A stretch of 64,000 nucleotides of DNA from Chiloscyllium plagiosum (Eukaryota), in contig NC_057718.1 of the NCBI RefSeq assembly GCF_004010195.1, positions 92,350,765-92,414,764 of the forward strand, read 5' to 3'. Below, piece by piece: positions 277 through 64,000 of this stretch. Below the pieces are notes generated by a model. The model made no database searches and was not told the origin of the DNA. It saw nothing but the letters and a program-made list of their open reading frames with translations. Numbering within the stretch: the first letter of the stretch is position 1; each line of letters begins with the position of its first letter. The position numbers were made by a program, and so were the translations under genes.

Positions 277-491
277 TAGGAGAAAGTGAGGACTGCAGAT
301 GCTGGAGCTCAGAGGCGAGAGTGTAGTGCATGAAAAGCACAGCAGGTCAGGCAACATCCGAGGAGCAGGAGACTTGACATTTCAAGCATAAGCCCTGATT
401 CCTGATGAAGGGCTTCTTCCCGAAACATCGATTCTCCTGCTCCTCAGATGCTGCCTGACCTGCTGTGCTTTTTCAGCACTACTCTCTCGAC
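277..491. mobile_element. Palindromic mini-element made of two inverted Penelope-like (Neptune-type) termini
   Basis: Arm ~317-396 is the reverse complement of ~409-490. TSD ttcttgc(t/c)cttgac at 263-276 and 492-505. Same terminus as the PLE at 40156-41890. Confidence 0.8.
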
Positions 492-816
492 TTCTTGCCC
501 TTGACCACATTCTACTGCACCTGAAAGTGCACTGTGGACATTGGCTGAGGACAGTGTTAAGTATGGATGTGATGACTCTCCTACCCGATATTTCATTGAC
601 CTGACCCACATGAGGAGTGGCAATTTGTACCAGGTATTGATGCTAGAGGTGCAGCTGAATCTTGCAATGAGCTTGCAATCTTCAAGAAAAGTGGGCTAAA
701 GTTAACTTACAATTCAGGCTCAAACTGAAGTAAGGTTTAATGTGTAATCTTTATCTCTGCATTCTCTTATTTTTGTTCAGTTGTTCATGTAGACTTTTCT
801 TGTTTGATAATCAGTA

Positions 817-1135
817 CAAGTACACAATCCTTTATCCGAAACCCTCGGAGCCAGCTGGTTTTCGGAATTCAGAAGTTTTCGGATTTCGGAATAAGTGACG
901 GTTTAATGGTGGAATAAAATAAACTTACCAAACAGCAGACGCACCTGTGAGTACTATGAGTGCTGAGACAGAATTGATGCCTACCAGTGCTGGGCCATGC
1001 CACCATGTCACACCTGAGTGACGTGGGTCAAGTGGTTGTGGAGTTGGGTTAACTGTTTGCATGCCAAACAACCTTATTGTGGAGAAAAAAGCTTCACGAA
1101 AATCTTTGGATTTCGGATAAAGGATTGTGAACCTG
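817..1135. mobile_element. Non-autonomous Tc1/mariner-pogo (Tigger-like) MITE
   Basis: 25-bp TIRs caagtacacaatcctttatccgaaa / tttcggataaaggattgtgaacctg (2 mismatches), TA on both flanks. Confidence 0.8.
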
Positions 1136-1641
1136 TACCTCCTTTCAAGTATGAATGGAGACATGCAAGTTTTAATTTCAACTTCAGCATTTAGTTTAAC
1201 AAGTGAAAAATGTAAAAATAAACTTTTCTTGAAATAAAAGTCTTTGTTCAACAATTTGAGGGTGTCTCTCAGTAGCATTAATATGCAATTACGTTGTTTT
1301 GGCAGCAGGAAATGAAACACAGCCATTAAAATAGCAGGCAAAGTATGCTTATTTAACACAAAACTGTACCTCATTCCAATTAAAATGTAGTTAACTAAAT
1401 TTCACTGCAGGAGCAAAAGCCGATTATGGTTTTCTTCAGTGAAAGAAAAATAAATTTTATTATCTGCTACTCTGAGAAAAATAATGAAGATAGGACTTCA
1501 AACATTTATACATAAAGGTATAAATTTAGAAAGTGTCCAATATAAAAGGAAGATGAAAAAGTCCTTAGTGTGCTTAAGGTGTAAGATTATAATCATTATT
1601 TTTGGATCATTAGCATAAGTGAACATGGCAGTGAACATGGT

Positions 1642-1818
1642 AGAATCATGGAATCCCTACAGTGTGGAAACAGGCCATTCGGCCCCATTAGTCCACACTG
1701 ACCCTCAGAGTATCCCACCCAGGCCCATTCCCCTATCCTATTTCTCTACATTTCCATGACTAATGCAACTAACCTACACATCCCTGAAAACTATGGGCAG
1801 TTTAGCATGGCCAATTAT
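1642..1818 (-). mobile_element. HE1/V-SINE 3' fragment
   Basis: Reverse complement matches the 3' half of the SINE at 15327-15641 (gccatgctaaa...cctgtttccacactgtag). Confidence 0.7.
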
Positions 1819-1963
1819 CCTTTGAATTCTCGGTTTCTTCTTAATATTTATTATCTTCGGGCTTTCTTTATGTAAAAGAGAGAGTTTAGTCAGCTAGTCT
1901 AATTCTCCAGTTAAAAATCCATCTCTCACATTCTTTCTGCCAAAACCAGCTAATTTAATTAAA

Positions 1964-2119
1964 AGGAGAAAGTGAGGACTGCAGGTACTGGAGATCAGAG
2001 TTGAAAAGTGTAGTGCTGGAAAAACACAGCAGATCAGGAGAATTGATGTTTCTGGATTATGAAACGTTGATTCTCCTGCTTCTTGGCCTGATCTGCTGTG
2101 CTTTTCCAGTGCCATACTT
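1964..2119. mobile_element. Palindromic PLE-terminus mini-element (same family as 277-491)
   Basis: Starts aggagaaagtgaggactgcag. Arms gctggaaaaacacagcagatcagg and cctgatctgctgtgcttttccag are inverted. Confidence 0.7.
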
Positions 2120-2134
2120 GAAATATTTTGTGCA

Positions 2135-2633
2135 AGAAAAAGATATTACAAACACTACATTGGACAAACAGGCAGAAAACTAGTCACCAGGATACATGAA
2201 CATCAACATCAACTAGCCACAAAATGACATGACCCACGCTCACTAGTATCCTTACATATAGATGAGGAAGGACACCACTTCGATTGGGACAACACATCCA
2301 TCTTGGGAGAAGCCAAACAGAGACGTGCACGAGAATTCCTAGAAGCACGGCATTCCAACCGGAACTCTATCAATGAACACATCGGGTTATACCCCATCTA
2401 CCAACTCCTGAGAAAAAGAACAGGAAATGGTATCACCACTGGAAATGACATCACCAACCCAAAGAAACCCAAACACATAAGTAGAAAGCAGGATTCATGT
2501 ACATTGCTTCGCCTGAGGCCCATTGATGATGTTACCTAGTAGGGTGACAAAATGTCTGGAAATGAACCTCCCAGCTCAGCAAGCAAACCTACATCCAGAA
2601 CCTCAACCTGGGCTACAAATCTTCTCAAAACTT
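2135..2633 (+). mobile_element. Penelope/Poseidon-type PLE 3' fragment (GIY-YIG endonuclease plus terminus)
   Basis: Translates KHYIGQTGRKL..IHEHQ, HHFDWDNTSILG, REFLEA.HS. Degenerate hammerhead at ~2522-2557. Confidence 0.85.
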
Positions 2634-2742
2634 GTTGTATTTTATCTGTTTCTTTTTAATAGCTGTTACTATTGATAGACTAAATCAATCACTATAAATG
2701 CCGGAGGAAACATCACAGAAGCGCTTCACAGGAGGCTCCCAA

Positions 2743-2782
2743 GCACTGAGGATGTCACCTAGACAGGGGACGAAACGTCTGC
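2743..2782 (+). ncRNA. Minimal type I hammerhead ribozyme motif in the 5' pseudo-LTR
   Basis: gca-CUGAGGA-u-gucaccu(agac)aggggac-GAAA-c-GUC-ugc: intact core, stem II with one mismatch, 3-bp stem I, palindromic minimal stem III. Confidence 0.75.
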
Positions 2783-4805
2783 AACACAAATTCCCAGCTC
2801 GGCGAACAGAACTACAACAACGAGCACCCGAGCTACAAATCTTCTCCCAAACTTTGAACACCTACGGGCAAAAGATGCTAAGACAAGCCAGGAAATGGGA
2901 ATCCTGTGCCAACCGCCTAAGCGCCAGATACGAACAACTCTGGTTCCTGCACGAATGCCAAAAGAATTGAATCCTTCCAGTATGTGTCAGATACAGACCA
3001 CCAGTCAACAACCCACACGCCAGGGACATAGCCAGACAGAACGGATTCAGGATGATCCAGGTAATGATTACAGACGCACACAACAGACTTCACAAATACA
3101 GACAAGAAATTGCGCGCCTAAAATCGTTAATTTCAAAAACCACCAATCAGGAATGGACCCGGACCAGAGAACAGGCCATTACCATAGTACAGAACAGGAC
3201 CACACATCGCAAAAAAACACTCAGGAACAATGGACTGACAGAAGAGACACAACAAACAGTGAGACAAAGTATCGTACCCCTGATAACAAGGAAAAGACAA
3301 ACACATAACCTCAACACCAAGGAGAGGGAAGCACTAAAAGCACTAAGAAACGATAAGAACATAATCATACTACCAGCAGTCAAAGGCAGAATGACGGTCA
3401 TCCTGGACAAAGCAGAGTTCATCCAAAAAGCGCAACAACTACTTGCAGATACCAACACCTACCAAAAGAGGAAGTTTGACCCCACCCCACAGCTCACCAA
3501 TAGGATAAACAACACACTGAGGAACCTACAAAAATACGGCCAGATAACCAAGTTTGACCTACAGAGAATGAAACCTGAAAGCAACAACACCCCCAGATTC
3601 TATGGATTACCTAAAGTGCACAAACCAGACAACCTACTCAGACCCATAGTATCACTATCAGGGACACCATCACACAAACTGGCTAAAGAATGACAGCAGA
3701 AACTGAAACCCCTGATCAGCGGATCTAGGCACTCTATACAGTCAACACAGGAATTCTTGGACATCATCAGAAATATACACATAGACAAGGAAGAAACTAT
3801 GGTCTCATTCGATGTAACGGCACTGTTCACCTCTATCGACAAAACAATAGCCAACCTGCTGGACATACAGAACAGACAACAAGACGGAGAACCTATCAAC
3901 AAAGACTGCATACTCAAACTACTGGACCTGTGCCTCACAACACACTTCACATTCAACAACCAAATATATGAACAAATCAACGGCACACCTATGGGCTCAC
4001 CCATCTCTGGACTCATAGCAGAAACGGTTATGCAAAGGTTAGAACAAACAGCCTTACCGCAAATTCAACCCAAACTCTGGGTCAGATATGTAGATGATAC
4101 CTTTGTAATCATTAAAAACATAGAAATAGAGAATACACACCAGCTCATCAACGCCACACTCACAGGAATCCGATTCACTAGAGAGGCAGAAAAGGACAAC
4201 CAACTCCCATTCCTAGACGTGATGGTACAGAGAACACCTAACTGAGAATTCACCACAAAGGTATACAGGAAAGCCACATACACAGACCAAGTCCTGAACT
4301 ACGAAAGCAACCACCCCAACATACACAAAAGAAGTTGCATCAAGACACTGTTCAAAAGGGCCACAACACACTGCAGTACACCAGAACTGCANNNNNNNNN
4401 NNNNNNNNNNNNNNNNNNNNNNNNNNNNNNNNNNNNNNNNNNNNNNNNNNNNNNNNNNNNNNNNNNNNNNNNNNNNNNNNNNNNNNNNNNNNNNNNNNNN
4501 NNNNNNNNNNNNNNNNNNNNNNNNNNNNNNNNNNNNNNNNNNNNNNNNNNNNNNNNNNNNNNNNNNNNNNNNNNNNNNNNNNNNNNNNNNTTCGACTGGG
4601 ACAACACTACTATTATAGGACAAGCCAAACAGAGAACAGCCAGGGAATTCCTAGAGGCATGGCATTCATCCAAGATTCAATCAATAAATACATTGACCTG
4701 GACGCAATATACCGGCCACTGCAACGGACAACTGGAAGCGGAAGATACAAATCACTATAAATGCCGGAGGAAACATCACAGAAGCACTTCACAGGAGGCT
4801 CCCAA

Positions 4806-4845
4806 GCACTGAGGATGTCACCTAGACAGGGGACGAAACGTCTTC
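4806..4845 (+). ncRNA. Minimal hammerhead motif in the 3' pseudo-LTR
   Basis: Same as 2743-2782 except ugc>uuc after GUC, which weakens stem I. Confidence 0.65.
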
Positions 4846-6573
4846 AGCACAAATTCCCAGCTCGGCGAACAGAACCACAACATAGACTAAATACCAGTGG
4901 AGTGTAAGAATAATTTTACCTCAAATTAAAATACACAATCTGTGCATGCAGATCATCATACACATCTAGTGTTCAGTTGTATTCATTATACTTTGTTGTA
5001 CAAAGTTCTATCACTATTAGAAAACAATCAAAGAGAGAGATTCTTGGTAATTTCACATTGTTCTTTTATTCCTGTAGACTTGCTTAAACACTTAAGGAAG
5101 AAAATAAGAAAGATGTTGCCTTAATATAAAATTATGTCACCTTTTAAAGCCATCTGAAAAGGCTTGCTTTAAAAATAATTATGCAGGAAAAAGTGCTTGT
5201 AGCCAGTTTCTTCATACTTGTGCCCTACAAATAGCAGATGTGATCAATAATTTGCTAATATGTCTTTTTGGTAGCACTCACTGAAGGAAAATGTTGAGTC
5301 AGGATACCAGGGGGCGTCTTTCCATTACACGATGCCATGGAATATTATAATTTCACATAAAAATAGAAGTTGCTATCAATGATGTACTCTTCTTCACCTG
5401 GCTGACCTATTATAGTCTTTGCTGATAGAACCAGCATAGAGATCACTGTGGTGAATTTATGATGATTTCTAATCATTTAAAACACAAAAGATTAATAAAA
5501 ATATAATGACTTATACTGTTGGAAGTTGCAGAGATTCACTCAGTCCAAAAAGTTAGTGTTGATGATCTTTAAAAATATTTATTTTAATAGTTGTTTTCTG
5601 CTTTGGCCATTTTCATCTTTCCCTTGATTTCATGTCTATGTCAAAGCTTTTATTTTTTTCATGTACAATGATTTAAATGCAAGTTGTATTTTTGGCTCAA
5701 CAGTCTGTATTTGTTAAGATCATTCAGTTTGGTTGAAGGGCCTGCTGATATTTTTCTTGTTCTCACACACTTTAGTCTACTGCAATGGGCACAAATTGGT
5801 GGTGAATGAGTATAAATCTCCATTGGTAACAGCACAAAATTTGTGGACAACTGTAAGCAAGGTGAATGATGAAAGATATTCTCTTGTTTACAGTAAAATT
5901 TAGGTTAATATAATGCAATTTGCTCTGAAATGTCAACCTAAATAACATGCTCAGGAATTGATGTGGGATTTGAACTTTCTGAATTTCTGACTCAGGTGGG
6001 AAATGTTACCAATAATTTTAGCGTATAAGAATGCACAGCAATTTAACTTTGTAACATAAAAGAGACACACATTACACACAGCTGCCACAGAATAGTAATT
6101 TACATGATATAATGCTATTTCTACAATTCTATTCCCTCTAATGTATTGTGAACAATACTGTTGGAAATAAACCAGTTTTATAATAATAAAAGCTATTTAG
6201 GATTTAAATTTTTGAAAATAGTCTCACTTTCAGATTTAAATGTTCATTCATCTTTGTTCTTCCATCAAATTCTCATTAAAGCAGATAATGTCTAATGCTG
6301 CTGAAGTTTTGTCTGGTATTGATTTGGTGGTAGCATGCATGAAACACGGGACAAAAGTAAGTTTGGTATACGTGTTTTGAGTGAACTAATGTATGCGGTT
6401 GTCCCATTGGATTGTAGCAGGTGATGAAGTTGTGATTGTAGGTTGTGAACTCAGAAAAGAAATAGCACAATCCTCCAAGAATTGTGTAGTATGGTTTCAC
6501 TGTGTAACATAAGCTTTTAAAAACCTGAAACTATCCCCATAACCCGACATGTATCACGGCTGATTGACATAAA

Positions 6574-6695
6574 CTGCACATCTTTGGACAGTGGGAGGAA
6601 ACCGGAGCACCGGGCAGAAGTCCACACAGAAATGGGGAGAACATACAAACTCCACAACAGGTACCCAAGGCTGGAATAGATCCTGTGCCCTGGAA
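6574..6695 (-). mobile_element. V-SINE (HE1-like) central fragment
   Basis: Reverse complement of the V-domain core tgctccggtttcctcccac...gatgtgcag. Confidence 0.7.
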
Positions 6696-7355
6696 CTTTA
6701 TTGACATGTTTCAGTGTGCATGATTTTACATAGTAAGCTACGGTATTGGAAAAATGTAGCTATTCTTTCATACTATGTGCTGTTCTTGATTTTTCTTCAA
6801 TACCTTGGCATTCACATGTTTATAAGTAGTTGATTCCATCTGTAATAACATCAAAAGTGTAAAACTAAAATTTAATTTGTTTTGTATATTAATTTATTTC
6901 ATGAAATGTGTAATTGCACAATACTTGGCGGTTCACTGCTACCATCTCAAAGGCAATTAGAAATGGGTAGCCAATGCTGGCCTTGCCAATGATGCCCACA
7001 TACTGTGAATGAATAAAAATATACAATTACAGAGATTGTAATGATTGGATCAACTTTAAAACCATTCGGTTGACATCAAATTAGTTTTTTCCTTGATAGT
7101 AAACCTTGCATGTATTTTGAAAGTGAGTATTTTCATCTTTCACTCATCAGGATAATTTTAAGAATGCCAATGTAAAGGGAAAAAAGAAATGACACTATGA
7201 GAGGAAAGTGCAGATTGGTTGCAACATGGACTTTGAATAAAGATTTTTGCCATGGAAAATGCACCAATTAGCAATGATTGACCGTTTCCTCATCTGCAAA
7301 ACGCATAAGTTGTTTGTGAATTCTTTCAAAAACATTCTTAAATTTTTTTCTTTAG

Positions 7356-8961: not shown

Positions 8962-9047
8962 GGATCAAAAAGGGTGGTGCTGGAAAAGCACAGCAAGTCA
9001 GGGAGCATCGGAGGAGCAGGCGATTCGATATTTGAAACATAAACCCT
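8962..9047 (-). mobile_element. Single PLE-terminus arm (family of 277-491)
   Basis: gtggtgctggaaaagcacagcaagtcagggagcatcggaggagcagg..., ending at hammerhead stem II. Confidence 0.65.
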
Positions 9048-11706: not shown

Positions 11707-11819
11707 GAGAAAGTGAGGTCTGCAGATGCTGGAGATAGGGCTTATGCCCGAAACGTCGATTCTCTTGTTCCCGAGATGCTGCCTGACCTGCTGCGCTGTT
11801 CCAGCAACACATTTTCAGC
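11707..11819 (+). mobile_element. PLE-terminus mini-insertion (short inverted tail plus direct arm)
   Basis: gagaaagtgaggtctgcagatgctggaga followed by agggcttatgcccgaaacgtc. 13-bp TSD tctacatgagatg at 11694-11706 and 11820-11832. Confidence 0.8.
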
Positions 11820-11909
11820 TCTACATGAGATGATCAAGACAGATTGTTGGTTATCGTCACTCTAGGAACTTGATGCTCTTGACCCTCTCCACTTAAGTTC
11901 ATTGATGTA

Positions 11910-20585: not shown

Positions 20586-21707
20586 AGCTCCTCGATGAGC
20601 AGAATGAGATAGGCAAACAATGACATAGTTAATCATAAGCTGAGATGGAGATCAGCTGAGACAGTGTTAGGTAGGGTGCGAATGAGAATTGTGTATAGTT
20701 GAAAACAACCCCTATAATGCAGAACCTGGGGTGTTATGAAGGGGGAGAGGTGACGACTGACACAGAGGAGTGTGATCTTCCTATTAAATTGTTGCACTCA
20801 ATGTTGAAGACGTATGCCAATGTGAACTTTTTGGAGGTACCAGGAGACATAGCCTTAAATGTAATCAAAGAGCTGGTCAGGCTTTTAAATAATTTTTTAA
20901 ATGATTTTTGTGACTTTAAAGTGAACTTGAATCTCATCACTCCCATTTATTTTATGAGAACAAATTGTTCTAAATCTGGAATCATCATTTTGCTTGTCTG
21001 AACCCTATCCCTTGCATTTAGATCTTTTCTTATATATGGCAACATTGTGTCAACCCCTGCCATTGTGGTTGCTTTATAAGATATAATTAAGTCTTTCCTT
21101 TTGCTTTATGTTTTGCCTGTCTACTTAAATACTCAAATTTATGTTTTATGTCTCTGCTGTTGTTCTACTTCTTGCTTTTTTAAATCCTCAAACAGTGAAA
21201 ATGTTCATTGTTGCTTCCAAAGGTACTTTAAAATGTACATTATGTATTCAGTATAGACATATATCGTAAAGTGAAATGTAGGATGGAGAAAATAGAAGCT
21301 GGAGTTTTTTTTAAACAAAATAAGTCTCCAAACGTTTGTAGGGAACAAGTTATTAAACTGAAGCAGACCAACAGTTCGAGAGTGGTTGAGTATTTCTAAA
21401 GCAGCTAGTTTCAACCAAAACTGGTAATACACCTTCTAAGCTTATATTAAATGCAAACTGGTCAGGATTATTTTAGGAAGAGTAGAGACCAGTTAGCATC
21501 TACTTTGGAAATTAGCTTACAAGAGAAATGGGGATTGCATATCTTACAGGTGCAGTTTTCTACATAAATGGAGTAAACGTTGAAGGGCAAGTTCAAAGGT
21601 GGGTAATGAAACCTTTCTGAAATGTATTTATCAGTGGGGCTGAACTTCACATATCCATTTAACTCTATATGGTAATAGAATTAAATTAGGAGTTTTAGAT
21701 GTCAAGC

Positions 21708-21801
21708 TTACTTTTTCAAATAAACCTGTTGGACTATAGCCCGGTGTCACTTGCTTTTTGACTTTGTCCACCCTAGTCCAACACCAGCACCCCTACATCA
21801 T
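21708..21801 (+). mobile_element. PLE terminus fragment (family of 60084-60203)
   Basis: aaataaacctgttggactatagcccggtg...ccaacaccagcacccctacatcat is homologous to the reverse complement of 60084-60165. Confidence 0.6.
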
Positions 21802-23009
21802 ATTTATTTCATACAGACCTTCAGTATTGTTTTAAAGTATTTATTACAGTCCATTACCATTCCAAAATCAAGAGTAATAATACAGACTAAGATAGGTTTT
21901 TTGCTCTGTTCTGCCTGATTTCAAGATAATTAGATGGGTAAGTTTTGAGAATAGATTCTCATTACGATAGAGCTATACCACTTAAATGGATGACCAATTT
22001 GAAGACATTTTATTTAGCAGATGGAGGAAGCAGTTTAAAATGATATACCTATTCAGTTACTGTTGCTGTTAAAATTATTATTGTTTTTGTGTTTTATTGT
22101 TGCCATTCATGAGTGTCTATGAATTTTAATTATTCATCTCTCACCTTCCTCTTCAGAGTGGTTTCCCATTAGGATATATCTTTGCTTCTTGGAGAAAGAG
22201 GAGGGGAAAGAAAGTGAGGCCAAACTGATGTGATAGCAGTAGTTAAACTTAGCACCCAGCACCAATACTTTATGACCAAAGCATGCATCCAGAGATGTGA
22301 GTTTACAGGAGAAGCTATAAGGGTTAGACTTCATGCTCTGAGAAAACCTGTAGCTTGTTCCACCACGTGTATCATTCAATTGACATGGTATTTCCTGCTT
22401 CACATGGACATGCTGACTATCTGATGTATTTCCATTGCCTAGATCGGAGCTGTGGTGTTCAACTGAACTGATTTCAGATGTCACAGTTGAAATGTGCAAT
22501 TTTGTTTTTTCTAATACTTAGCCAGTCAGATTCTGATTTGCTAAGGTCACATTTTGTTTCATTTCATTTAACAAAAATTAATTTGCCTTTCACTGAAACA
22601 CATGCAATGCTGCAAACTTGGTTTCAACATTAAACCAGAAGCTGCTTATCCAAAAAAAAAAGATGAGAGTAAAGCAAGTTCTTTTTATTTAAAATGCAAT
22701 TCAAAAGGTTTTAATGCACAGACTAAAAGTATAATCCACTCATCCTAATGCCATCACATTACAGTACTCAACCATCAGAGAGAGTTCACCTCTCTATCAC
22801 ATCTATAGGTTTATTTTTATTGTTTCCTTCAATCCCTGGTCTTGAGAGTTTGGTAGCCACTTCCTTGATTTAGACTGTCAACTCCGAATAACTCCTTTGG
22901 GTTTTAGTTAAACACTTCTAGTTTTGAAGTATTAAGTTTAAATCCTTACATTGGAGGTAACTTATTTCTGAACTTTTCTGAATGAATGAATCCAAAGATT
23001 GATTGAACG

Positions 23010-23975: not shown

Positions 23976-24076
23976 ATTCTGAGGAAGGGTCACTCGACTT
24001 AAAACATTTAACTATGATTTTTCTCCACAGATGCTGCCAGACCTGCGGTGCTTTTCCAGCAATTTATATTTTTGTC
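23976..24076 (+). mobile_element. PLE terminus fragment with decayed hammerhead
   Basis: ttCTGAGGAagggtcactcgacttaaaac...cagatgctgccagacctg...ttttccagc. Related copy at 36966-37092. Confidence 0.55.
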
Positions 24077-25999: not shown

Positions 26000-28900
26000 A
26001 TCCCTTCATCAGGAATGAGGCTTGTGGCCAGGGGGCTGAGACATAAATGGGAGGAGTTGGGGTTGGGGTGGGGGAGGTAGCTGAGAATGCAATAGGTAGA
26101 TGAAGGTGGGGGAGAAAGTGACAGGTCGGAGAGGAGGATGGAGCGGATAAATGGAAAGACAATGGACAGGTCAAGAGGGTGGTGCTGAGTTAGAGGCTTG
26201 GGACTGGGATAAGGTGACGGAAATGGAAATGAGGAAACTGGTGAAATCCATATTAATACGTGTGGTGGCAGGGTCCCAAAGCGGAAGATGAGGAATCCTT
26301 CCTCCAGGCGTTTGGTGGTTAGGGTTTGACAATGGAGGAGGCCCGGGTCCTGCATATCCTTGGTGGAGTGGGAGGGGGAGTTGAAGTGATCAGCCACAGG
26401 GCAGTGGGGTTGGTTGGTGCAATTGTCCCAGAGATGTTCTCTGAAACAATCTGCAAGTTGGCGTCCTGTTTCCCTGATGTAGAGGAGACCACATCGGGTA
26501 CAACGGATACAGTAGATGATGTTTGTGAATTTCAGTTGGATGTGGAGGAACCTTTGGAGCCTTGGACGGAGGTGAAGGGAGAGGTGTGGGCGCAGATTTT
26601 GCACTTCTTGCGGTGGCAGGGGAAGATGCCAGGAAAGGGGTGAGAGCTGGTTGGGGCCGTGGATCTGACAAGGGAGTTCAGCCAAGCAGATGAGGGTGTC
26701 AGTGGAAGGATATTGGTTGGGACAGCGTGAGGAGGAAGAAACTGAGGGCTTGGAGACCTTTCTCATGGTAGATAGTCTCTCCGAAATGCATGTCCCTAGT
26801 GGTGGTTCTGTTTGTAGGTGGCGGACGTGATGGAGGATGATGCATTGTATACAGAGGTTGGTGGGTGGAAGCTGAAGACCAGGGGTATTCTGTCCTTGTT
26901 GTATTGGGAGGAGTGGGTTTCAAGGGCAGATATGCAGGAAGTGGAGGAGATGCGCTGGAGGGCATCGTCGACCATGTGGGAGGGGAAATTGTGGTCTTTT
27001 AAGAAGGAGGCCATCTGGGATTTTCTATGTTGGAGTTGGTCGGCAGAGGCAGAGGAATTGGGAATAATATCACACCCGACCCCCATAATCACGCCCACTC
27101 CAGTGGCAGTCTCTGCCCCCACCCCAAGTCCTAGCTCCCAGCTCTGCCGTGTTTTTACTATTCCCCCAGACCTCCCCCTTACTGAGGATGAACGTTCAGT
27201 CCTCAGCAAAAGTCTCACCTTCATCGTCTGTGCTCCTGGATTAATGAGTTCGCCAAGCGTTGTGATTTCTTCTGTCACCTCCATTTTTTCAATCAACATT
27301 CCCACCCACCCACCCACCGAGGGCCTCTTCTCTCACCTCCAACACACCCCATCCACCTGGACACCCCCTACTGGCCTGTTACCCGCCCTTGGCCTGTTCA
27401 TTTCCAGCTGCCGCCGTGACATAGACCACCTCAACCTGTCCACCCCCCTCACCCACTCCAACTTCCCGCCCTCGCAATATGCAGCCTTCCACTCCAACCC
27501 CAACATCACCATCAAACCAGCAGACAAAGGGGACGCTGTGGTAGTTTGGGGCACTGACCTCTACACGGCTGAAGCCAGATGCCAACTTGCAGACATCTCC
27601 TCCTCCTCCTGCCGCCCCCTCAATCATGACCTCACCTACCATCACCAAATCATCATCTCCCAGACCATCCATAGCTTCTTCATCTCTGGAGATCTCCCAT
27701 CCACAGCCTCCAACTGCATCATCTGCAAACCCCGCACTCCTGATATTACCTCATACCAAAGATTTACAAACCTGATTTCCCCAATCAACCCATTATCTCA
27801 GCCTGTTCCTGTCCCACTGAACTGCTGTCTACATACCTTGACACCATTCTGTCCCCCTTAGACCAGGAACTCCACACCTACATTTGGGACACCACCCATG
27901 CCCTTCACCTCCGCTAAGAATTTTGTTTCCCCGGCCCCCAGTGCCTTATCTTCATCATGGAAACCCTGTCCCTGTACACATTTATCCACCACAATGGAGG
28001 CCTCTAAGCCCTCCGTTTCTTCCTCCTCACACTGTCCCAACCAGTACCCTTTCACTGACACCCTCATCAGACTGGCTGAACTGGTCCTCACTCACTTAAC
28101 AACTTCTCCTTCCAATCCTCCCACTTTGACCAAATCAAAGGGTAGCCATGGGCACCCGCATGGGACCCAGCTATGCCTGACTCTTTGTTGGGTACGTGGA
28201 ACAGTCCCTCTTCCGTAGTTACACCAGCATCATCCCCCACCTTTTCCTCCACTACATTGGTTACTGTATCGGCGCTATCTTGTGCTCGCACGAGGAGGTT
28301 GAACAGTTCATCAACTTCACTAACATCGTTCACCCCGACCTCAAATGCAATTGGACGATCTCAGTCACCACCCTCCCCTTTCCATCTCCATCTCCAGTGC
28401 GATTAACCACGGATATAGACTACAAACCCACCAACTCCCACAGCTATCTGGACTACACCTCCTTCCACCCTGCCTCCTGTAAAAACGCCATCCTGTATGC
28501 CCAATTCCTCCCTCTTTGCCACATCTGTTCCCGGATGACCAATTTCACCACAGAAAATCCCAGATGGCCTCCTTCTTCAAAAACCGCAATTTCCCCTCTC
28601 ATCTGGTCAGTGATGCTGTCCAGCACATCTCCTCCACTTTCTGCACCCCTGCCCTTGAACTCCACTCCTCCCAATGCAAGGAGGCACTGGCCCTCACCTT
28701 TCACCCCACCAACCTCCGTATACATCGCATCATCCTGCGCCACTTCCGCCACCTACAAACAGACCCCACCACTAGGGATGTATTTCCCTCCCCACCCCTA
28801 TCAGCGTTTCAGGGAGACCGTTCCTTCCGCGACTCCCTTATCAGATCCATGCCCCCAGCAACTTCCCTTGCCACCACAAAAAGTGCAAAACCTGTGCCCA

Positions 28901-29525
28901 CACCTCCCCCCCCCCCCACCTCCGTCTTAAGACCCCAAAGGATCCTTCTAAATCTGACAGACATTTGCCTGTACCTCTGCAAATGTCATGTACTGCATCC
29001 GTTGTACCAGATATAGAAAAATACAGCACAGAACAGGCCCTTCGGCCCACGATGTTGTGCCGAACATTTGTCCTAGCTCTGGTCTCCTCTGCAAGGCGCC
29101 AACTTACAGATCATTTCAGAGAACATCTCTGGCACACCCGCAGTAACCAATCCCACTGCCCTGTGACTGATCATTTCAACACCCCCTCCCACTCTACCAA
29201 GGACATGCAGGTCCTGGGCATCATCCATCACAAGACCCAACCACCCAAAGCGTGGAGGAAGAACGCCTCATCTTCTTCCTTGGGACCCTACAACCACACA
29301 GGATTAATGGGGATTTGACCAGTTTCATCATTTGACCAGTTTCATCATTTCTCCCCCCGCCCCCCCAACCCCAAGCTTATCCCAGTCTCCAACACAGCAT
29401 TGCCCTCTTGACCTTTCCATCGTCTTTCCCATCTATCTGCTCCACCCTCCTCTCCGACCTATCATCTTCTCCTCCATCTTCATCAACTACCCCTCCACCC
29501 CCTACCAAGCTCCATCCTCTTCCCA
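26000..29525 (+). mobile_element. Neptune-type PLE pseudogene with a ~1.07-kb inverted 3'-derived arm at its 5' side
   Basis: Forward part (~27066 on): NPNITIKPADKGDAVVVW, VAMGTRMGPSYA, YKPTNSHSYLDY, Cys linker, GIY-YIG remnants. 26000-27065 reads IIYCIRCTRCGLLYIRETG...LIFRFGTL on the minus strand. Many frameshifts; YIDD decayed. Confidence 0.88.
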
Positions 29526-31638: not shown

Positions 31639-31673
<35 letters not shown>

Positions 31674-36965: not shown

Positions 36966-37092
36966 CTTCTGAGGGAGAGTTACCGGACCCGAAACATTAA
37001 CTTTGATTTCTCTTCACAGATACTACCAGACCTACTGACCTTTCCAGCAAATTCTGGTATTGTTACTGATTTACAGCATCTGCAGTTCTTTC
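36966..37092 (+). mobile_element. PLE terminus with decayed hammerhead
   Basis: ttctgagggagagttaccggacccGAAAcattaac...tttccagc...cagcatctgcagt. Confidence 0.55.
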
Positions 37093-37449
37093 AGTTTTAA
37101 TTTAGTGCTGTCTATCTACCTAATTAGAAGCCAATTTTTCTTGCTAAGAGACAAAGAAAAGGCTTGAGAATGATGGGAATTGGTGCAGGAGCAGATTGGT
37201 TATGCATGAACACCCAAGATGGTGAGGTGTCCCCTTGAATGAGAGAGTAGGAAGCACAATGTGCAGGCAAAGATGATGAGATGGGTGTGAGCCCTTGAGT
37301 GGACATCATACATGTAATGCTGAGGCTTGCAGCCGATCACCTTTGGTGAGATGTGTATGCAGTGGCAGTGTTAGTGAATAATATCTCTTGGAGTATGTGG
37401 AGTGCAATTTATCCTTGTGGAGTTTCAGAAGATAATTGATTTTTTTGCT

Positions 37450-37902
37450 GCATAAACCGACCGACTCCCACAGCTACCTAGACTACACCTCCTCCCACCC
37501 TGCCCCTTGTAAAAACGCCATCCCATATTCCCAATTCCTTCGTCTCCGCCCATCTGCTCCCAGGAGGACCAGTTCCAATACCGTACAACCCAGATGGCCT
37601 CCTTCTTCAAAGACTGCAATGTCCCCCCAGACGTGGTCGACGATGCCCTCCACCGCATCTCCTCCACTTCCCGCTGCTCCGCCCTTGAGCCCCACCCCTC
37701 CAACCACCACCAGGACAGAACCCCACTGGTCCTCACCTACCACCCCACCAACCTCCATATACAGCGTATCATCTGCCGTCATTTCCACCACCTCCAAACG
37801 GACCCCACCACCAGGGATATATTTCCCTCCCCTATCAGCGTTCCGAAAAGACCACTCCCTCCGTGACTCCCTCGTCAGGTCCACACCCCCCACCAACCCA
37901 AC
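37450..37902 (+). mobile_element. Neptune-type PLE fragment (relatively young), runs into an assembly gap
   Basis: KPTDSHSYLDYTSSHPAPCKNAIPYSQFLRLR and MASFFKD...PLVLTYHPTNL. CpGs retained. Confidence 0.85.
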
Positions 37903-40071: not shown

Positions 40072-42245
40072 TGTTTCATTCGTTCATGAGATGTGGGTGT
40101 TGTTGGCCGGGCTAACAATTGTTACTCACACCTACTTGCCCTTGATCAGGTGGTGGAAAAAGTGAAAACTGCAGATGCTGGAGATCAGAGTCAAAAAGTG
40201 TGGCACTGGAAAAGCACAGCAGGTCAGGCATCATCCAATGAGCAGGAGAGTGAACGTTTTGGGCATAAGCTGTTCATCAGGAATGTGGGGGTAAATGTTG
40301 GTGGGGGGTCAAGGGGGCTGAGAGATAAATGAGAGGGGAGTGAGGTTGGGGGGGAAGGTAGCTTGGAAGGTGATAGATAGGTGAAGGTGGGTGTGATAGG
40401 GTTGAGTGGATAGGTGGAGAGGAAGTTGAACAAGTAGGATAGTTCAAGAGGGTGGTGCTGAGTTGGAAGTTGGATATGGGATAAGGTGGGGGGAGGGGAG
40501 ATGAGGAAACTGGTGAAATTGACATTAATGCCATGTGGTTGGAGGTGCCAAGGTGGAAGGTGCGACGTTCTTCCTCCTCCTCCTTCACAAATATCTCCCA
40601 GCCCGACCTCAAGTTCACTTGGACCATCTCGGACACCTCCCTCCCTTTCTTGGACCTCTCCATCTCCATTCCCGGTGACTGACTCAACACAGACATCTAC
40701 TTCAAATCGATGGACTCCCATGGCTACCTGGATTACACCTCATCCCACCCACCCTCCTGTAAAAATGCTATCTTTAACTCCCAATTTCTCTGCCTCTATC
40801 GCATTTGCCCTCAGGAGGAGTAGTTCCACTCCAGAACATCTTAGATGGCCTCCTGCTTCAATGACCGCAATTTCCCTTCACATGTGGTCAATAATGCCCT
40901 CCAGCACGTCTCCTCCACTTCCCACACCTCCACCCTTGAACCCCACCCCTCCGACTGCAACAAGGATAGAACCCCCTGGTCCTCGCCTTCTACCCATCAA
41001 TCTCCAGATAAAACACATCATCTTCTGCCACCTACAGTCAGATCCCACCACCAGAGATGTATTTCCCTCCCCGCCCCTATTAGCATTCTGCAGAGACCAT
41101 TTCCTCTGCGACTCCCTCATTAGGTCCACGCCCCCCACCAAACCACCCTCCACACCTGATACCTTCCCTTGCCACCACAAGAGGTGCAAGACTTACACCC
41201 ACATCACCTCCCTCACCTCCATCCAAGGCTCCAAAGGATCCTTCCACATCCGGCAGAGATTTTTCTGCATATCCAAACACCTCATCTACTGTGTCCGTTG
41301 CTTCCATGTGGTCTCCTCTACCCTGGAGAGACAACATGCCAAATTGCAGAATGGTTCAGGGAACAACTCCAGGACACATGCACCCAACAACCCACTACCA
41401 TGTGGCCGACCACTTCAATTCCCCAACCCAGTCTGTCAAGGACATGCAAGTCCTGGACCTTCTCCACCGCCATATCCAAGTCACCCGATATTGGAGGAGG
41501 AACGCCTCATCTTCCGCCTTGGGACCCTCCAACCATGCGGCACCAATGTCAATTTCAGCAATTTCCTTATCTCTCCTCCCCCCACCTTATCCCAGATCCA
41601 ACCCTCCAACTCAGCATCGTCCTCTAGAACTGTCCTACTTGTCCATCTTCCTTCGCACCCATCCGCTCCACCCTCCGCTCCAACCTCTCATCATCACCCC
41701 CACCTCCATCGACCTATCACCTTCCAAGCTACCTTCCCATCCTCACCAGCCCTATCCCCTCCCATTTATCTCTCAGCCCCCTTGGGCCCCACCCACATTC
41801 CTGATGGAGGGCTTATGCATGAAACGTCGACTGTCCTGCTCTTCGGATGCTGCCTGACCCGCTGTGCTTTTCCAGCGCCATGCTTTTTCACTTGATCAGG
41901 TGGTGATGAGCTGCGTTTTTGAATCTCTGTAGTCCATGTGCTTTGGGTAGACCTACAATGCTCTTCAGAAGGGAGTTCTAGGATTTTGACCCAGCGACAT
42001 TAACGGACAGTGATACATTTTGATTCAGGAGTGACTCGGAGGGAATCTTGCAGGTGGTGGTGTTCCCATGTATCTGCTGCTCTTGCAAGATGAAAGTAGG
42101 CATAGGTTTGGAAGGTGCTGTCTGCAGTGCTTCTTGAAAATGATGCATGCACTGCTCTGACTGAGCGTCAGTGGTAGAGGGAGTGACTGTTTGTGAATGT
42201 GGTGCCAGTCAAGTGGGCTCCTTTGTCCTGGATAATATCAAGCTA
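40072..42245 (-). mobile_element. LINE 3' fragment (family of 50630-51895), split by the PLE insertion
   Basis: 40072-40155 and 41906-42245 together are the reverse complement of ~51460-51895. Confidence 0.6.
40156..41890 (+). mobile_element. 5'-truncated Neptune-type PLE with inverted terminal arm
   Basis: 40156-~40580 is the reverse complement of the 3' end (~41495-41890). 15-bp TSD cttgatcaggtggtg at 40141-40155 and 41891-41905. PCHHKRCKT linker and HLIYCVRC GIY-YIG remnant. Confidence 0.9.
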
Positions 42246-50629: not shown

Positions 50630-51895
50630 GTGGCAAAGATCAAGGCTGCATTCAACCGAATGTGGCATCAAAGAGCCCAATCAAAACTGAAATCAATGGG
50701 TATGAGGAGGCAAACTCTTTGCTGGTTGAAATCAAAGCTGAGACATAGGAAGATGGTTGTGGTTGTTGAAGGTCAGTCATTTCAGCTCCAGGAATCTCTG
50801 AGGAATTCCTCAGGATAGTCTCTGAGGCCTAAACATTTTCAGCTGCTTCTTCAATAACCTACCCTCCATCATACTATAGGAAGGATGTGGAGGCATTGGA
50901 ACGGGTGCAGAGGCAGGAATCTCTGAGGAATTCCTCAGGATAGTCTCTGAGGCCTAAACATTTTCAGCTGCTTCTTCAATAACCTACCCTCCATCATAAA
51001 GTCAGAAGTGGGGAAGTTCATCAATGTTTGCATAGTTCTCAGCACCATCTGCAACTCCTTGGACACTGAAGCAGCCCATGTCCAAATGCAACAAGATCTG
51101 GACAACATCCAGCTTGGGCTGATGTGTGGCAAGTAACAATCATGCCGCACAAATGTCAGGCTATGGCCGTTAACAATAAGAGACCATCTAACCACCGCCC
51201 CTTGACAGTCAATGGTGTTACCATCACTGAGTCCCACACTACCAACATCCTGGGGATTATCATTGCCCAGAAACTCAACTGGACCAAATGCATAAACACA
51301 GTGGCTATAAGAGTAGGTTAGAGGCTAGGAGAGTGGCAAGTAACACACCTCCTGATTCCCCAACCCATGTCCACCATCTACAATTCACAAGTCAGGAATG
51401 TAATGGAATACTCCCCACTTACCTGGAGGAGTGCATCCCTAACAACACTCAAGAAGCTACATCAGGACAAAGCAGCCCACTTGATTGGCACCACATCCAC
51501 AAGCATCCACTCCCTCTACCACTGATGCCCAGTAGCAGTTTTGAGTACTATTTACAAGATGCACTGCAGAAATCACCAAAGAACTTCACAGCATCTTCCA
51601 ACCCCTCACCACTTACATCTAGAAGGACAAAGGCAGCAGGTATATAGGAACATCACCACCTTTAAGTTCCCCTCCAAGCCACTCATCATCCTGACTTGGA
51701 AATGTTTCACTATTCCTTCACTTTGCTTGGTCAAAACTGTGGAATTCCCTCCCAAACAGCATTGTGGGTCAACCTACAGCAGGTGGATTGCAGTGGTACA
51801 GGAAGACAGCTCACCACCATCTTCTAAAGGACAACTAAGAATGGGCAATAAATACAGGCAGCCAGCAACACCCACATCCCACAAATGAATTTAAA
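50630..51895 (+). mobile_element. Non-LTR retrotransposon RT and 3' end (CR1/L2/Jockey-group family)
   Basis: IKAAFNRMWHQ (DIxxAFDRVWH-like), ILGIIIAQKLNWT, tail ending aatgaattt. Homologous to 63040-64000. Confidence 0.75.
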
Positions 51896-59100: not shown

Positions 59101-59364
59101 AAATTCTTTGTGAATCTTTGTCAGCAAACCTAATGCTGTTCATATTTGCATTTGGAGAATATTCCAGAATTGGATTGGGAGATTTATTTATTGTGGTTAA
59201 AAAAATCAAATTAATGTTTTGTATTTGATTTTATCATATTTTTGAAGTTGAAGAGAAAATATTTCTCAATTTTAGGCATAATTGTTTTTATTCAATGTGC
59301 CAACCATAAAAATAAAATCAAATTCAGTTTCCTGCAAGGTGATGTTCAATGTGTTCTTTTTCAG

Positions 59365-60019
59365 ACAGGGAATTTGTCAAGACAAAAGGATATAGATGTT
59401 GGAAAGCACATGTCAAAAGGATTATCCACCACTTGCATTATGGACCAACAAGCATCATGGACCTCAAATGGAACATGTTCAAATTTACGAGAAAAATGTC
59501 AGCAGCATGTGGAGAGCTTTACATCTTCCCAGCCATACAGGCAGGCAGCGTCAGTGACAACAACGCACAGTAAATCTGTGATGGACAACTTGAAGTCACC
59601 CATGTCAAGCAAGGGAAGCCAAGACTTCCACACTGTTTCTGACATAATAGAAAGGGAGACAGGACTCCAAACAAGTCAAGTAATGCCATTCACTCCTGTA
59701 ATCTCTTCAAGAAATGAACGACTTTGCTATGAAGGAATAGAATGTCATAGGCGTATTAGAGCAAATAGTTCAGCTGGCAGTCAGGAATTACCTATACCTG
59801 TGACTCAGTTAGAATCCATTAAGGAAGAGTTGACACAAACCATTGTACTGGATGATTTTAAGAATCGCCTGACAGGTGAAGAAAATAATCTCAAAAACAT
59901 AATTGTAAGTGAACAAGCACATGAGCGGTTTCAGAGACAATTCATGGATCAGCACCAAGATAGTGGGTGTTCAGGAGTTTCCAGCATGAACACAAAAGAA
60001 AACAGCATTTTTCATTTGG
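59365..60019 (+). CDS. KIZ: Kizuna, probable large exon 5, 655 bp, phase 0-1
   Basis: Acceptor ttctttttcag, open frame within ORF 59242-60057, donor gtaata. Begins TGNLSRQKDIDVGKHMSKGLSTTCIMDQQAS (cf. recalled KIZ INSGTAMSRGLYQPATIFMGRQMS), then Ser-rich low-conservation sequence. The 3' boundary is less certain. Confidence 0.75.
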
Positions 60020-60083
60020 GTAATACTTTGTCATTTTTGATTAAAGTACACTGCTGATTTACTAATCTTTCAGGTGGATATTA

Positions 60084-60203
60084 TGATTTGGAGATGCCGG
60101 TGTTGGGCTGGGGTGTACAAAGTTAAAAATCACACAACACCAGGTTATACTCCAACAGGTTTAATTCGAAGCACACTAGCTTTCGGAGCGACGCTCCTTC
60201 ATA
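60084..60203 (-). mobile_element. PLE-terminus mini-insertion with hammerhead (third family)
   Basis: 12-bp TSD aggtggatatta at 60072-60083 and 60204-60215. Minus strand reads cuuAUGA-a-ggagc(guc)gcucc-GAAA-gcua. Confidence 0.75.
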
Positions 60204-60559
60204 AGGTGGATATTAGGATTTATTTAAATATTACAAAAACTGAAGTTCTTATTTGAATCAGAATATTACTTTTAATGATAAGAATTAATGCAAAATGACT
60301 CATCTTGTATCTTGAATGTAGAATTTTGTTTCCCAGAGTTGTTTAGTATTGCCATCTAAAATGTCTGTGATCCTGTCTGATCTTTAAAGGACATGCTACG
60401 ACACAGAACAACCTTATGTGGATTTGAAGTCCAAAGTTGACATTTTTAAATTAAAATCATAGTGGGTTATTTAGGGGACTTGAGCTGTTATTAACTCTTA
60501 ATCATCTTGATTTAGTTGACAAGGTGTAAGATAGTATTGAGTCATTTTATTGAGTTTAT

Positions 60560-62055
60560 GTTAGCAGTGACAAGTATGTGTGATGACTCAATTTACTGAT
60601 GACACCAAAATGGGGAACAAATTAAGCAACAAAAGGCTATCAGTTAGTTAAATAAGTGGGCAGAAATTTGGCAGTTGAAGGCTAATGTGGGAAAATGTGA
60701 ACTTGTCCACATTGGCAGAAAGAGTGAAAAAGGAGCATACTATTTAAATTGTGAAATGTGATGTACAGATGGATCTGAGTGTCCTGGTATATGAGTCACA
60801 AAAAGTTAGTCTGGAAGTACAGCAAGTGTTTAGGCAGACAGATGATATGTTGGTGTTTATTGCAAGGAAAATAGAATATGAGAGTGGAAAACTTTTACTG
60901 CCACTAGCAAGCTTTGAGAAGATTTATAGCTCAGGTTGAGGTTCTGGATGTAAGTTTGCTCACTTAGATGGAAGGTTCATTTTCAGATGTTTCATCACCA
61001 TACTAGTTGACATCATCAGTGAGCCTCCGGTGAAGCAATGGTGGTATGGCCCGCATTTTATTTATGTGTTTAGGTTTCCTTGGGTTGGTGATGTTATTTC
61101 CTGTTTTTTCTCAAGACGTGGAAAATGGGATCCAAGTCAATGTGTTTGTTGATAGAGTTTCAATTAGAGTACCATGCTTCTAGGATTTCTAGCTTGTGTC
61201 TCTGTCTGGCTTTTCCTAGGATGAATGTGTTGACCCAGTCAAAGTGGTGTCCTTCCTCATTTGTATGTAAAGATACTAGTGAGAATGGGTCATGAGATCA
61301 GGAGCTGAGGTCACTAGTATCCTTACATACGGATGAGGAAGGACGTCACTTTGACTGGGACAACACATCCAACCTCGGACAAGCCAAACAGAGACACGTG
61401 CAAGAATTCCTAGAAGCATGGCAGTCCAACCAGAACTGTATCAACAAACACATTGACTTAGATCCCATTTGCCACCCCATGAGAAAAAGAACAGGAAATT
61501 ATATCACCACAGGAAATGACATCACCAACTCAAGGAATCCTAAACACACAAATAAAAAGCAGGACATACCACCAGTGCTTCACCACAGGCTCACTAATGA
61601 TGTTACTTAGTATGGTGACAAAACATCTGAAAATGAACGTTTTACTGCCACAGTACAGAGCTTTCCAGAACCCATCTCTGGAGTATAAAATCTTGCTCTC
61701 CTCATTTGAAAAAGGACATAATTGAATTTGAGTTAGTTCAGAGAAGGTTCACTGAATTCATTCATGAGGTGAAGGACTTGTCTTGTGAAGAAAGGGTGAA
61801 CAGATTACGCCTTTACCCATTAGAATTTAGAAGAATGAAAGGTGATCTTATTGAAACATTTAAGATTGTAGGGAGACTCAACAGGGTGAATTTTGTGAGG
61901 ATGTTTCCCCATGTAGGAGAGAGTAGAATGAAGAGCACAGTTTAAGAATAAAAGGTTTCATTTTGAAGATAGAAATGAGATATATTTTCTCAGAAAGTCA
62001 TTCATTAATCCGTGGAATTCCGACCCCTAGAAAACAAATAGACTGGGTCATTGAA
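60560..62055 (+). mobile_element. Old CR1 LINE RT fragment, split by a PLE insertion
   Basis: FTDDTK at ~60593 and KDIIEFELVQRRFT..LEFRRMKGDLIETFKI. The host sequence resumes after TSD ttttactgccac. Confidence 0.75.
60905..61639. mobile_element. Poseidon-type PLE as two inverted 3' arms
   Basis: 60905-~61295 is the inverted counterpart of ~61308-61639 (EFLEAWQS..INKHIDLDPI). 12-bp TSD at 60893-60904 and 61640-61651. Homologous to 2135-2633. Confidence 0.88.
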
Positions 62056-62108
62056 TTTGGGGAGGCAATGGTCTAGTGGTATTTTTGCAAGACTATTAAT
62101 CCAGAAAC

Positions 62109-62219
62109 GGAAATGTGTTGCTGGAAAAGCGCAGCAGGTCAGGCAGCATCCAGGGAACAGGAGAATCGACGTTTCGGGCATAAGCCCTTCTTCAGGAATT
62201 CGGGCATAAGCCCTTCTTC
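62109..62219 (-). mobile_element. PLE-terminus mini-insertion with intact hammerhead core
   Basis: 16-bp TSD ctattaatccagaaac at 62093-62108 and 62220-62235. Confidence 0.85.
62168..62195 (-). ncRNA. Minimal hammerhead ribozyme motif
   Basis: CUGAAGA-a-gggc(uuau)gccc-GAAA-c-GUC with a perfect stem II. Stem I is weak. Confidence 0.7.
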
Positions 62220-64000
62220 CTATTAATCCAGAAACCTGACTAACTTTCTGGGAACTGGGTTCAAATCCAACCACAGCAGGTGGTGGGATTTAAATTCAGT
62301 AAAGTATATCTGTAATTAAGAATCTATTGATGATGGCACCATTGTCAATTGTCAGAAAAATCCAACTGGCTCACTCGTGTCCTTCAGGGAAGGAGTTCAA
62401 GGAAGGAAACTGCCATCCTCACCTGGTCTGGCCTACATGTGACTCTAGAGCCTCAGCAATGGGTTTGTTTCTCAACTACCCTCTGAAATGGCCCAGGAAG
62501 CCACACAGCTGTATTGAATACTCCAAAGTCTCAACAAAGAAATGGAACGGGAATGTAGCACCTGGCATTGACCAAGGCACAGGAAAAGACAATGGCAGGA
62601 AGAGCCCTGTTGACATTGCAAAGTCCTCCTTATTAACATCTGCGGCTACTGCCAAAATTGTTAGAGCTATCTCATAGATTAGTCAAGCAACAGCTTGATA
62701 TTGTCTGTCAAATATGACTTCATGATTATGACTATGTCCTAGACACCACCATCACCATCCCCAGAGGTCCCACCAGCAGTACAGACCCATTAGATGTAGA
62801 AACACCATGGTATACAACTGGGCAGGTGTTGACCTCTGAGTCCTCAATATTGACTTCAGACCCCATGAAGTCTCATTGCTTCAAGTTAAATATAGGCAAG
62901 GAATGTCCTGCTGATTATCACATAATTGACACACAGTTTGGGTTCCACTAGGCCACTCAGCTCCTGACCTCATTACAGCATTGGTTCAAGCATGGACGGA
63001 CAAAAGGGCTGAATTCCTGAGATGAGTTGAAAGTGATATCTGTTGACATCAAGGCGACATTTGAGTTTCTCATCAAGAAAAACTGAAATTAATGGGTATT
63101 GGAGGCAAACTCTCCACTGGTTGGCGTCGTATCTGGCACAAAGAGAAGATGTTGTGGTTAATGGAGGTCAGTCATCTCAGTTCCAGGACATTGCTGCATG
63201 GGTTCCTCCGGATAATATCCTTGGCCCAATCATCTTCAACTGTTTTATCAATGGCTTTCCCTCCATGATGAGGTCTAAAGTGGGCATTTCCGCTGAAGAT
63301 TGCACAGTGTTTAGCACCATTGGCGACTGCTCAGAAGCAGTTCATGTTCAAATGCAACAAGATCTGGATGATATCCAGCTTGCGCTAACAAGTGGCAAGT
63401 AATATTTATGCCACACTAATGCCAAGCAATGACCATCTCCAATAAAAGATGATCCAACCACTGCTTCTTGGCATTCAACGGTGTTACCATCACTGCATCC
63501 CCCACTATCAATGTCCTTGGGGTTACCATTGACCAGAAACTCAACTGGACTCGCTGCAAAAACACAGTGGTTACAAGGGCAGGTCAGCGGTTAGGAATAT
63601 TCCAGCAAGTAACTCACCATCTGACTCCCAAAGCCTGACCACTGTCTGTAAGGCACAAGTCAGGAGTGTGATATAATATTACCCACTTGCCTGGATGGGT
63701 GCAGCTCCAGCACACTCAAGAACCCTGATACCATCCAGGACAAAACAGCCACTTGATTGACACCACATCCACAAGCATCCACTCTGTTCACCATCAACAC
63801 TCAGTATAAGTAGAGTGTACTATCTACAAGATGCACTGCAGAAGTTCACCACAGATCCTTAGACATCACCTTCCGATCTGGAAGGATAGGGCAGAGATAC
63901 ATGGGATTGCCACCACGTGCAATTTCCCATCCAAGCCACTCACCATCCTGACTTGGAAATATATCACTGTTCCTTCAGTGTCATTGGGTCAAATCCCAAT

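Follow-up and report, generated by a model that had tools for sequence, protein, structure and literature searches.

Why do so many short insertions in one stretch of genome stop at, or within a few bases of, a ribozyme motif? The stretch in question is 64,000 nucleotides of Chiloscyllium plagiosum DNA (assembly GCF_004010195.1, contig NC_057718.1, positions 92,350,765 to 92,414,764 of the forward strand; hereafter the window), in which we catalogued stubs of 85–215 bases that carry the terminal sequence of Penelope-like elements (PLEs) and break off near a hammerhead motif. The original prediction had described them as one family and as a candidate for an undescribed system, explained either by a retrozyme-like RNA or by stalling of the reverse transcriptase (RT) at the ribozyme fold. 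Our analysis indicates that the stubs are end pieces of three PLE families (A, B and C), and we consider it fairly probable that they are strong-stop-like run-off cDNAs of 90–130 nt, copied from an internal RT start in the 5' leader of the RNA.

The positions of the 5' boundaries carry most of the argument. Counting from the A of ATTCC as +1, the hammerhead core begins at +5 and stem II occupies +13 to +24, with cleavage predicted after +32. Core and stem II were recognised at 402, 62195, 2746, 4809 and 61019 and are decayed in the other copies; a relaxed hammerhead scan gave 8 matches as against 2–5 in shuffles, and an Rfam scan of the window returned no hammerhead match, only a chance snoU13. 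Among the 19 terminus-bearing arms in the window, 11 stop in the interval from slightly ahead of the core to +28 relative to it. Five of these, from three families, end at about +1 (the right arm of the insert at 278–491 and the stubs at 62109, 23976, 36966 and 60090), three end at +12 (the left arm of 278–491, the right arm of 11707–11819, and 8962), and the remaining three lie at about +17 to +25 (1964–2119 in both its arms, and 21700). Since the arms that end at about +1 differ in length (91–127 nt) and come from three families, it appears to be the site, and not the length, that sets the end. The earlier statement that the boundaries lie in or within about 25 nt of the core in every listed copy leaves out eight exceptions, namely a 30-nt tail piece (the left arm of 11707–11819), the two long family A arms of 40156–41890 and all five arms of the Poseidon-type families D and D2. 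The arm end at about 26000, which had been counted as the same kind of boundary, is a boundary of the 3' kind, in a decayed element that has no target-site duplication (TSD), and is not comparable; the tally omits three pieces that have no 3' terminus (the two arms at 26002–29516 and a fragment at 37436–37900).

None of the 11 boundaries falls at the predicted cut (+32/+33), in agreement with the earlier view that they are not plain cleavage products, and an origin of the stubs as cleavage products was rejected on this count. An origin at a splice acceptor, as in the intron of Drosophila virilis Penelope, was also rejected, as an AG precedes +1 in 0 of 3 long arms. Under an exponential-truncation model, 11 of 19 arms had a best-case P of 2.6e-4, a value that needs qualifying: boundaries and lengths were placed by hand, the test window was set after the claim, paired arms are non-independent and the length used for one D2 arm was 54 nt in excess. 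Two further observations concern the joints themselves. Three independent arms, ending at 396, 9047 and 11737, stop exactly at +12, a single base beyond the stem II hairpin, possibly a sub-peak produced by trimming. In the stub at 62109, positions 62200–62219 are a 20-nt duplication of +7 to +26 that stands directly before +1 and inside the TSD; it contains no core and would fit a second jump between templates once run-off had taken place.

Next to the boundaries themselves, sequencing depth was examined with reads and contigs placed on the long family A arm (41317–41916) at 80% likeness. The RNA set comprised 2,392 raw reads on both strands from a poly(A) single-cell library, of which 2,389 fit only partly and continue into other sequence; they are likely to sample many genomic copies through read-through transcription. 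RNA depth rose 20-fold at the 5' edge of the hammerhead, from 28.8 in 41777–41796 to 582 in 41797–41816 (22 at 41791 vs 494 at 41807), and climbed further in the following bins (582, 1,250 and 2,068, the last being the terminus). Over the 300 nt upstream it stayed at 3–63 (mean 30) with no further fall. A smooth decay would not produce this step and plateau, which together with the truncation test uphold the earlier claim that the clustering goes beyond random truncation.

The stubs were then assigned to families and to longer relatives (Table 1). Family A comprises the inserts at 278, 1964, 8962, 11707 and 62109, family B the stub at 60090 and the older B-like copy at 21700, and family C those at 23976 and 36966. 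An nhmmer search gave no match of family B (60090) to family A, and family C forms its own tree branch with support of 100/99. The idea of one family thus gives way to three PLE families with differing junctions. Family A termini run on, as judged by protein matches, into an open reading frame (ORF) for RT and GIY-YIG domains in the long copies 26002–29516 and 40156–41890; this continuity is established for A, while B and C have no long copy in the window. The nearest named proteins to the main PLE ORF of the window, queried with a decayed copy, come from carpet sharks (61–62% identity). The family A ORF has a CxxC linker, which makes it Neptune-like, and Pfam recognised RT in 1 of 9 frames, the copies being frameshifted. 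The 1.7-kb insertion at 40156–41890 includes the 3' portion of the RT-GIY-YIG ORF and has the anatomy of a stub, with arms that extend about 290 and 1,200 nt past the hammerhead on its upstream side before they join; its candidate +1 lies at 41797, with TTTAT at -32. In general, the long insertions share stub anatomy and TSD size, and a tail on one end with an adjacent inverted truncated copy was seen in 278–491, 1964–2119, 11707–11819, 40156–41890 and 60906–61639.

TSDs were scored against a null of 300 random site pairs from the window, in which the top score was 10. The four stubs previously credited with their own TSD scored 11, 13, 15 and 16, each above all null pairs. The family B insert begins at 60090 and not, as first proposed, at 60084, because about 5 nt of its TSD are shared with the element's own 5' end. 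At 1964, 8962, 23976 and 36966, none of the four candidate TSDs rose above chance by the same null (p 0.18–0.80). A TSD is thereby present in 4 of the 8 stubs originally named and in two long insertions (40156–41890 and 60906–61639). Beside the first of these, CTTGCCCTTGA at about 40134–40144 resembles the TSD of the insert at 278–491, either through target preference or by chance. The paired arms within 278–491, 1964–2119 and 40156–41890 are 81–83% identical and no nearer to each other than to unrelated copies, which may reflect age or two template RNAs. At 1964–2636, the family A stub meets, at its right end, a D2 fragment extending from the GIY-YIG region to the tail; no TSD was found around it, and it may be a nested insertion or a cross-family join.

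The mechanism that we favour draws on the biochemistry of PAc, a Poseidon element of Anolis carolinensis, whose protein nicks and extends both target strands from two internal RT starts bounding the tail and whose hammerhead lies at the start of the ORF (PMC11167929). Shortening the PAc RNA at its 5' end gives a shorter product, and mutants of the hammerhead core leave both insertion and product size unchanged (PMC11167929). In D. virilis, Penelope has an internal promoter, and transcripts begin inside the upstream pseudo-long terminal repeat (pLTR) (PMC2377424). By analogy, a tandem PLE in the window would be transcribed from a start inside the 5' pLTR, here placed at +1. The PLE protein would nick both target strands, and the RT would begin either at the short end or, about 37 nt beyond it, at the tail end, the two start sites known in vitro from PAc; both classes of 3' end are seen in the window. 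Because transcripts would start inside the upstream pLTR, the RT start sequence would occur twice on the RNA. Starting at the 3' copy would give ordinary, randomly truncated long arms, whereas starting at the copy in the 5' leader, about 100 nt from the 5' end, must yield a short run-off product, a cDNA of 90–130 nt ending at +1. One such cDNA sealed into the target would appear as a single arm and two joined cDNAs as a head-to-head pair, leaving a TSD of 12–18 bp. The observed products suggest that the joint may be trimmed by 11–25 nt and at times acquires short duplications during repair. The ribozyme would thus mark the boundary by its position, with neither cutting nor stalling needed.

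Several details at +1 are consistent with this run-off. With regard to the TATA and initiator (Inr) consensus sequences, +1 matches YYANWYY exactly in 1 of 3 long family A arms (26016) and with one mismatch in the other two, and TTTAT lies at -31/-32 in 2 of 3; the chance frequency of the motif is 0.7–1.8% of positions. The apparent second jump in the stub at 62109 falls exactly after +1 (one case). Directly before +1 in the right arm of 278–491 stands an extra G (one case), at 397 between the two arms and belonging to neither. Copying of the cap by RT can be a source of such a G.

A full-length element of family D shows how a module of the same kind is deployed. Its hammerhead cores lie at 2746 and 4809, with TATAAA at 2693–2698, and the ATG of its ORF, at 2752, falls where stem II begins, an arrangement shared with PAc; the leader passes through the tail into the ORF, and the module serves as 5' leader. 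The element is near-intact, yet its ORF has stops and frameshifts and an N gap at 4392–4590.

A number of observations weigh against the run-off explanation. The status of the module as a leader is demonstrated for family D only, as no full-length copy of A, B or C was found. A leader-peptide search for family A gave 0 matches among 120 proteins, a second such search gave no candidate, and a third gave 6 matches, of which the 5 inspected were unrelated repeat proteins. None of the five D and D2 arms stops at the hammerhead, their ends lying between 59 and about 1,960 nt upstream, and only 5 of the 11 hammerhead-area boundaries are at +1. The assignment of +1 as the putative transcript start relies on the initiator-like motif, and TTTAT is a weak TATA match. 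In genomic contigs the terminus was in excess, 8.0-fold in the same species and 6.7-fold in a second species, with no step at +1; same-species depth in three bins across +1 was 49,907, 35,705 and 513,148, where summed contig depth does not equal copy number. Divergence of the reference arm is about 18%, and it is richer in indels upstream, which can inflate the RNA step; identity to it was 64–80% over the full length vs 81–82% in the terminus. Of the four runs placed on the arm, one gave 0 reads and does not count as a test. Finally, no pile-up of molecule starts or ends was listed in the RNA set, whose library type makes this a weak test that cannot show circles.

Table 1. Penelope-like insertions in the window, with arms, 5' boundaries (+1 = A of ATTCC) and target-site duplications
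Feature	Coordinates	Strand	Arms and boundary	TSD
Family A head-to-head stub	278..491		tail arm 278–396 (-), boundary +12; short arm 398–491 (+), boundary +1	263–276/492–505, 14 bp, 1 mismatch, score 11
Older family A head-to-head stub	1964..2119		both arms from ~+17 to +25, internal deletions; right end adjoins D2 copy	none above chance
Family A single short arm	8962..9047	-	boundary +12	none above chance
Young family A stub	11707..11819		30 nt inverted tail, then short arm 11737–11819 (+) from +12	11694–11706/11820–11832, 13 bp, perfect, score 13
Young family A stub	62109..62219	-	+1 to +91 = 62199–62109; 20-nt duplication precedes in sense; intact minimal hammerhead core	62093–62108/62220–62235, 16 bp, perfect
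Family B stub	60090..60207	-	3' terminus to ~3 nt before CUGANGA position; 5' junction shares microhomology with target	60072–60089/60204–60221, 18 bp, 1 mismatch, above null maximum
Older family-B-like stub, absent from the original prediction	21700..21802	+	boundary near motif GAAA (approximate)	
Family C stub	23976..24076	+	boundary ~+1	none above chance
Family C stub with partial tail	36966..37092	+	boundary ~+1	none above chance
Long family A head-to-head insertion	40156..41890		tail arm 40156–40582 (-), short arm 40583–41890 (+)	40141–40155/41891–41905, 15 bp, perfect
Decayed long family A inverted copy	26002..29516		both 3' ends gone; YYANWYY match at +1 (26016, -), TTTAT at -31	
Full-length Poseidon-type PLE (family D)	2687..4882	+	133-bp pLTRs, 97% identical; RT domain (RVT_1)	
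Family D2 head-to-head insertion	60906..61639		junction ~270 nt upstream of hammerhead (counter-example)	60893–60904/61640–61651, 12 bp, perfect

The alternative that fares best is that the stubs amplify themselves in the manner of short interspersed nuclear elements (SINEs): the sequence from +1 to the tail would carry both an internal promoter and an RT start, and would be transcribed and re-copied in trans with no full-length parent. An internal promoter is known from D. virilis Penelope (PMC2377424), and in Adineta the pLTR sequence alone is described as enough for trans-mobilisation (PMC3846280). In our data the terminus is 7- to 33-fold in excess of the sequence upstream, and the two young copies, 62109 and the right arm of 11707–11819, are 94% identical (support 86/97), with no long counterpart among the two long arms in the window. 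Against self-amplification, the five family A inserts all differ in junction layout, the older stubs are as near to the long arms (72–88%) as to each other, none of 200 bootstrap trees set the short copies apart on one side of a branch, and on both strands nearly all RNA reads continue into other sequence, the pattern expected of read-through. The tree is star-like, and an approximately unbiased (AU) test on 81 columns and 11 rows did not reject a clade of the short copies (p = 0.10). We regard self-amplification as unlikely. A combined scheme also seems unlikely: a module of about 130 nt would be the complete mobile unit, run-off at the cap would make the stubs, and those having +1 and the tail would be re-copied as a Pol II-transcribed, ribozyme-headed, SINE-like class about 10 times as numerous as its parents in shark genomes, the run-off also supplying the upstream repeat of PLE tandems.

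Pausing of the RT, template switching or trimming of the cDNA at the stem II hairpin could also set the boundary, and 3 of 8 short family A arms (the left arm of 278–491, the right arm of 11707–11819, and 8962) indeed end at +12, one base past a 4-bp stem II hairpin predicted in the cDNA (-4 kcal/mol). The six termini, however, show no more stable folds than shuffled sequences do (z -0.92 to +0.21), the core mutants of PAc leave product size unchanged (PMC11167929), and 8 of 11 ends are on the 5' side of the fold, although the RT arrives from the 3' side. Stalling at the fold, one of the two mechanisms first proposed, is not supported, given these z values and a main boundary on the far side, reached only after the fold has been copied through. 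We judge it improbable that the hairpin sets the boundary as a whole; in the +12 sub-peak the fold may have a minor role, perhaps through trimming.

A solo pLTR with its TSD retained would be left if the two pLTRs of a full-length copy recombined, and solo pLTRs have been described for PLEs (PMC3846280). Recombination gives no reason, however, for a 5' pLTR to begin at +1; in the sole full-length copy in the window, that of family D, the pLTR begins 59 nt before the core, and neither head-to-head stubs nor the duplication at 62200–62219 are readily produced in this way, which makes it a very unlikely source of the stubs. Still less credible is an artefact in which short-biased random truncation, detection limits and divergence of the reference imitate a peak. 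Such an artefact would accord with DNA contigs that show no step, hand-placed boundaries in old copies and a more diverged upstream reference, but young TSD-flanked copies have exact junctions at +1 and +12, the truncation model fits poorly even at its best, and upstream depth forms a plateau with no decay. To the classical retrozyme lacking long terminal repeats (LTRs), with a ribozyme-cut circular RNA and rolling-circle reverse transcription, we give almost no credence, since the type I minimal motif of the stubs and the PLE origin proposed for animal retrozymes (bioRxiv 10.64898/2026.07.22.740005) are set against single cores, the absence of tandem units or permuted monomers and the lack of any boundary at the cut site.

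The retrozyme-like RNA family invoked by the original prediction is likewise not borne out: no head-to-tail tandem units with a complete hammerhead were found, all stubs being single or head-to-head, and the copies divide into three families with no shared family A layout and no bootstrap tree grouping the short copies, although the AU test leaves their clade unrejected. Non-LTR retrozymes (PMC7229834; bioRxiv 10.64898/2026.07.22.740005) resemble the stubs in being non-coding, in their type I hammerhead and in their relation to PLE pLTRs, and differ in their head-to-tail repeats of about 170–400 nt, canonical hammerheads and circular RNAs.

A closer counterpart is the insertion unit described for endonuclease-positive PLEs (Penelope/Poseidon and Neptune; PMC3846280, PMC8557442), which consists of a pLTR, an adjoining inverted 5'-truncated copy and a one-sided tail of 30–40 bp. 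Head-to-head arms, a tail on one arm, TSDs, microhomology at the joints, TATA/Inr-like motifs in the pLTR and solo pLTRs are common to these units and the window, and the long copies of the window encode RT-GIY-YIG, like endonuclease-positive PLEs. The TSDs are longer here, 12–18 bp as against 8–10 bp in Adineta (PMC3846280), ORF-less stubs dominate, and a sharp 5' boundary in front of the hammerhead is not described for such units in the available parts of PMC3846280 and PMC8557442. The anatomy is therefore that of a published insertion unit and not of an undescribed system; the stubs are likely a by-product class of known PLEs, and what is of use is the sharp boundary, with the testable mechanistic refinement that it suggests. 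PAc shares with the window two internal RT starts flanking the tail, extension of both strands and, with family D, the position of the hammerhead at the ORF start; family A is Neptune-like, unlike the Poseidon-type PAc, and the part of PMC11167929 at hand does not treat run-off in the 5' leader or stub boundaries. The minimal hammerheads of metazoan PLEs (PMC4209133) have a minimal type I core with palindromic GAAACGUC, are mostly single and dispersed, occur also as opposite-strand pairs and were ascribed to truncated PLEs; cleavage and circularisation were proposed for them, unlike the run-off suggested here, and boundaries are not mapped in the available text.

The minus-strand strong-stop DNA of LTR retroelements is a short cDNA running from an internal primer site to the 5' end of the RNA. 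The stub cDNA would differ from it in being target-primed and in becoming an integrated dead end, with no transfer to the RNA's 3' end. In a literature search that lay outside subscription papers and supplements, we found no paper that pairs PLEs with 'strong stop' or states the run-off explanation. If the boundary is the transcript start, it would explain the thousands of solo minimal hammerheads in animal genomes and would tie the internal-initiation chemistry of PAc to a genomic signature; stub boundaries may then allow PLE start sites to be read from genome sequence alone.

Scans for related loci in viral and genome contigs found none, and a scan with a 20-nt motif gave 22 metagenome loci, all discarded (best match to the window 22–32 nt), and 0 viral loci. 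The window as a whole is repeat-rich vertebrate DNA. A 280-aa stop-to-stop frame at 59215–60057 on the minus strand looks like a host exon and is unique DNA present in sequencing runs of several species, with no RNA run among those listed for it, and positions 50789–50998 hold a perfect 85-bp direct duplication within another repeat.

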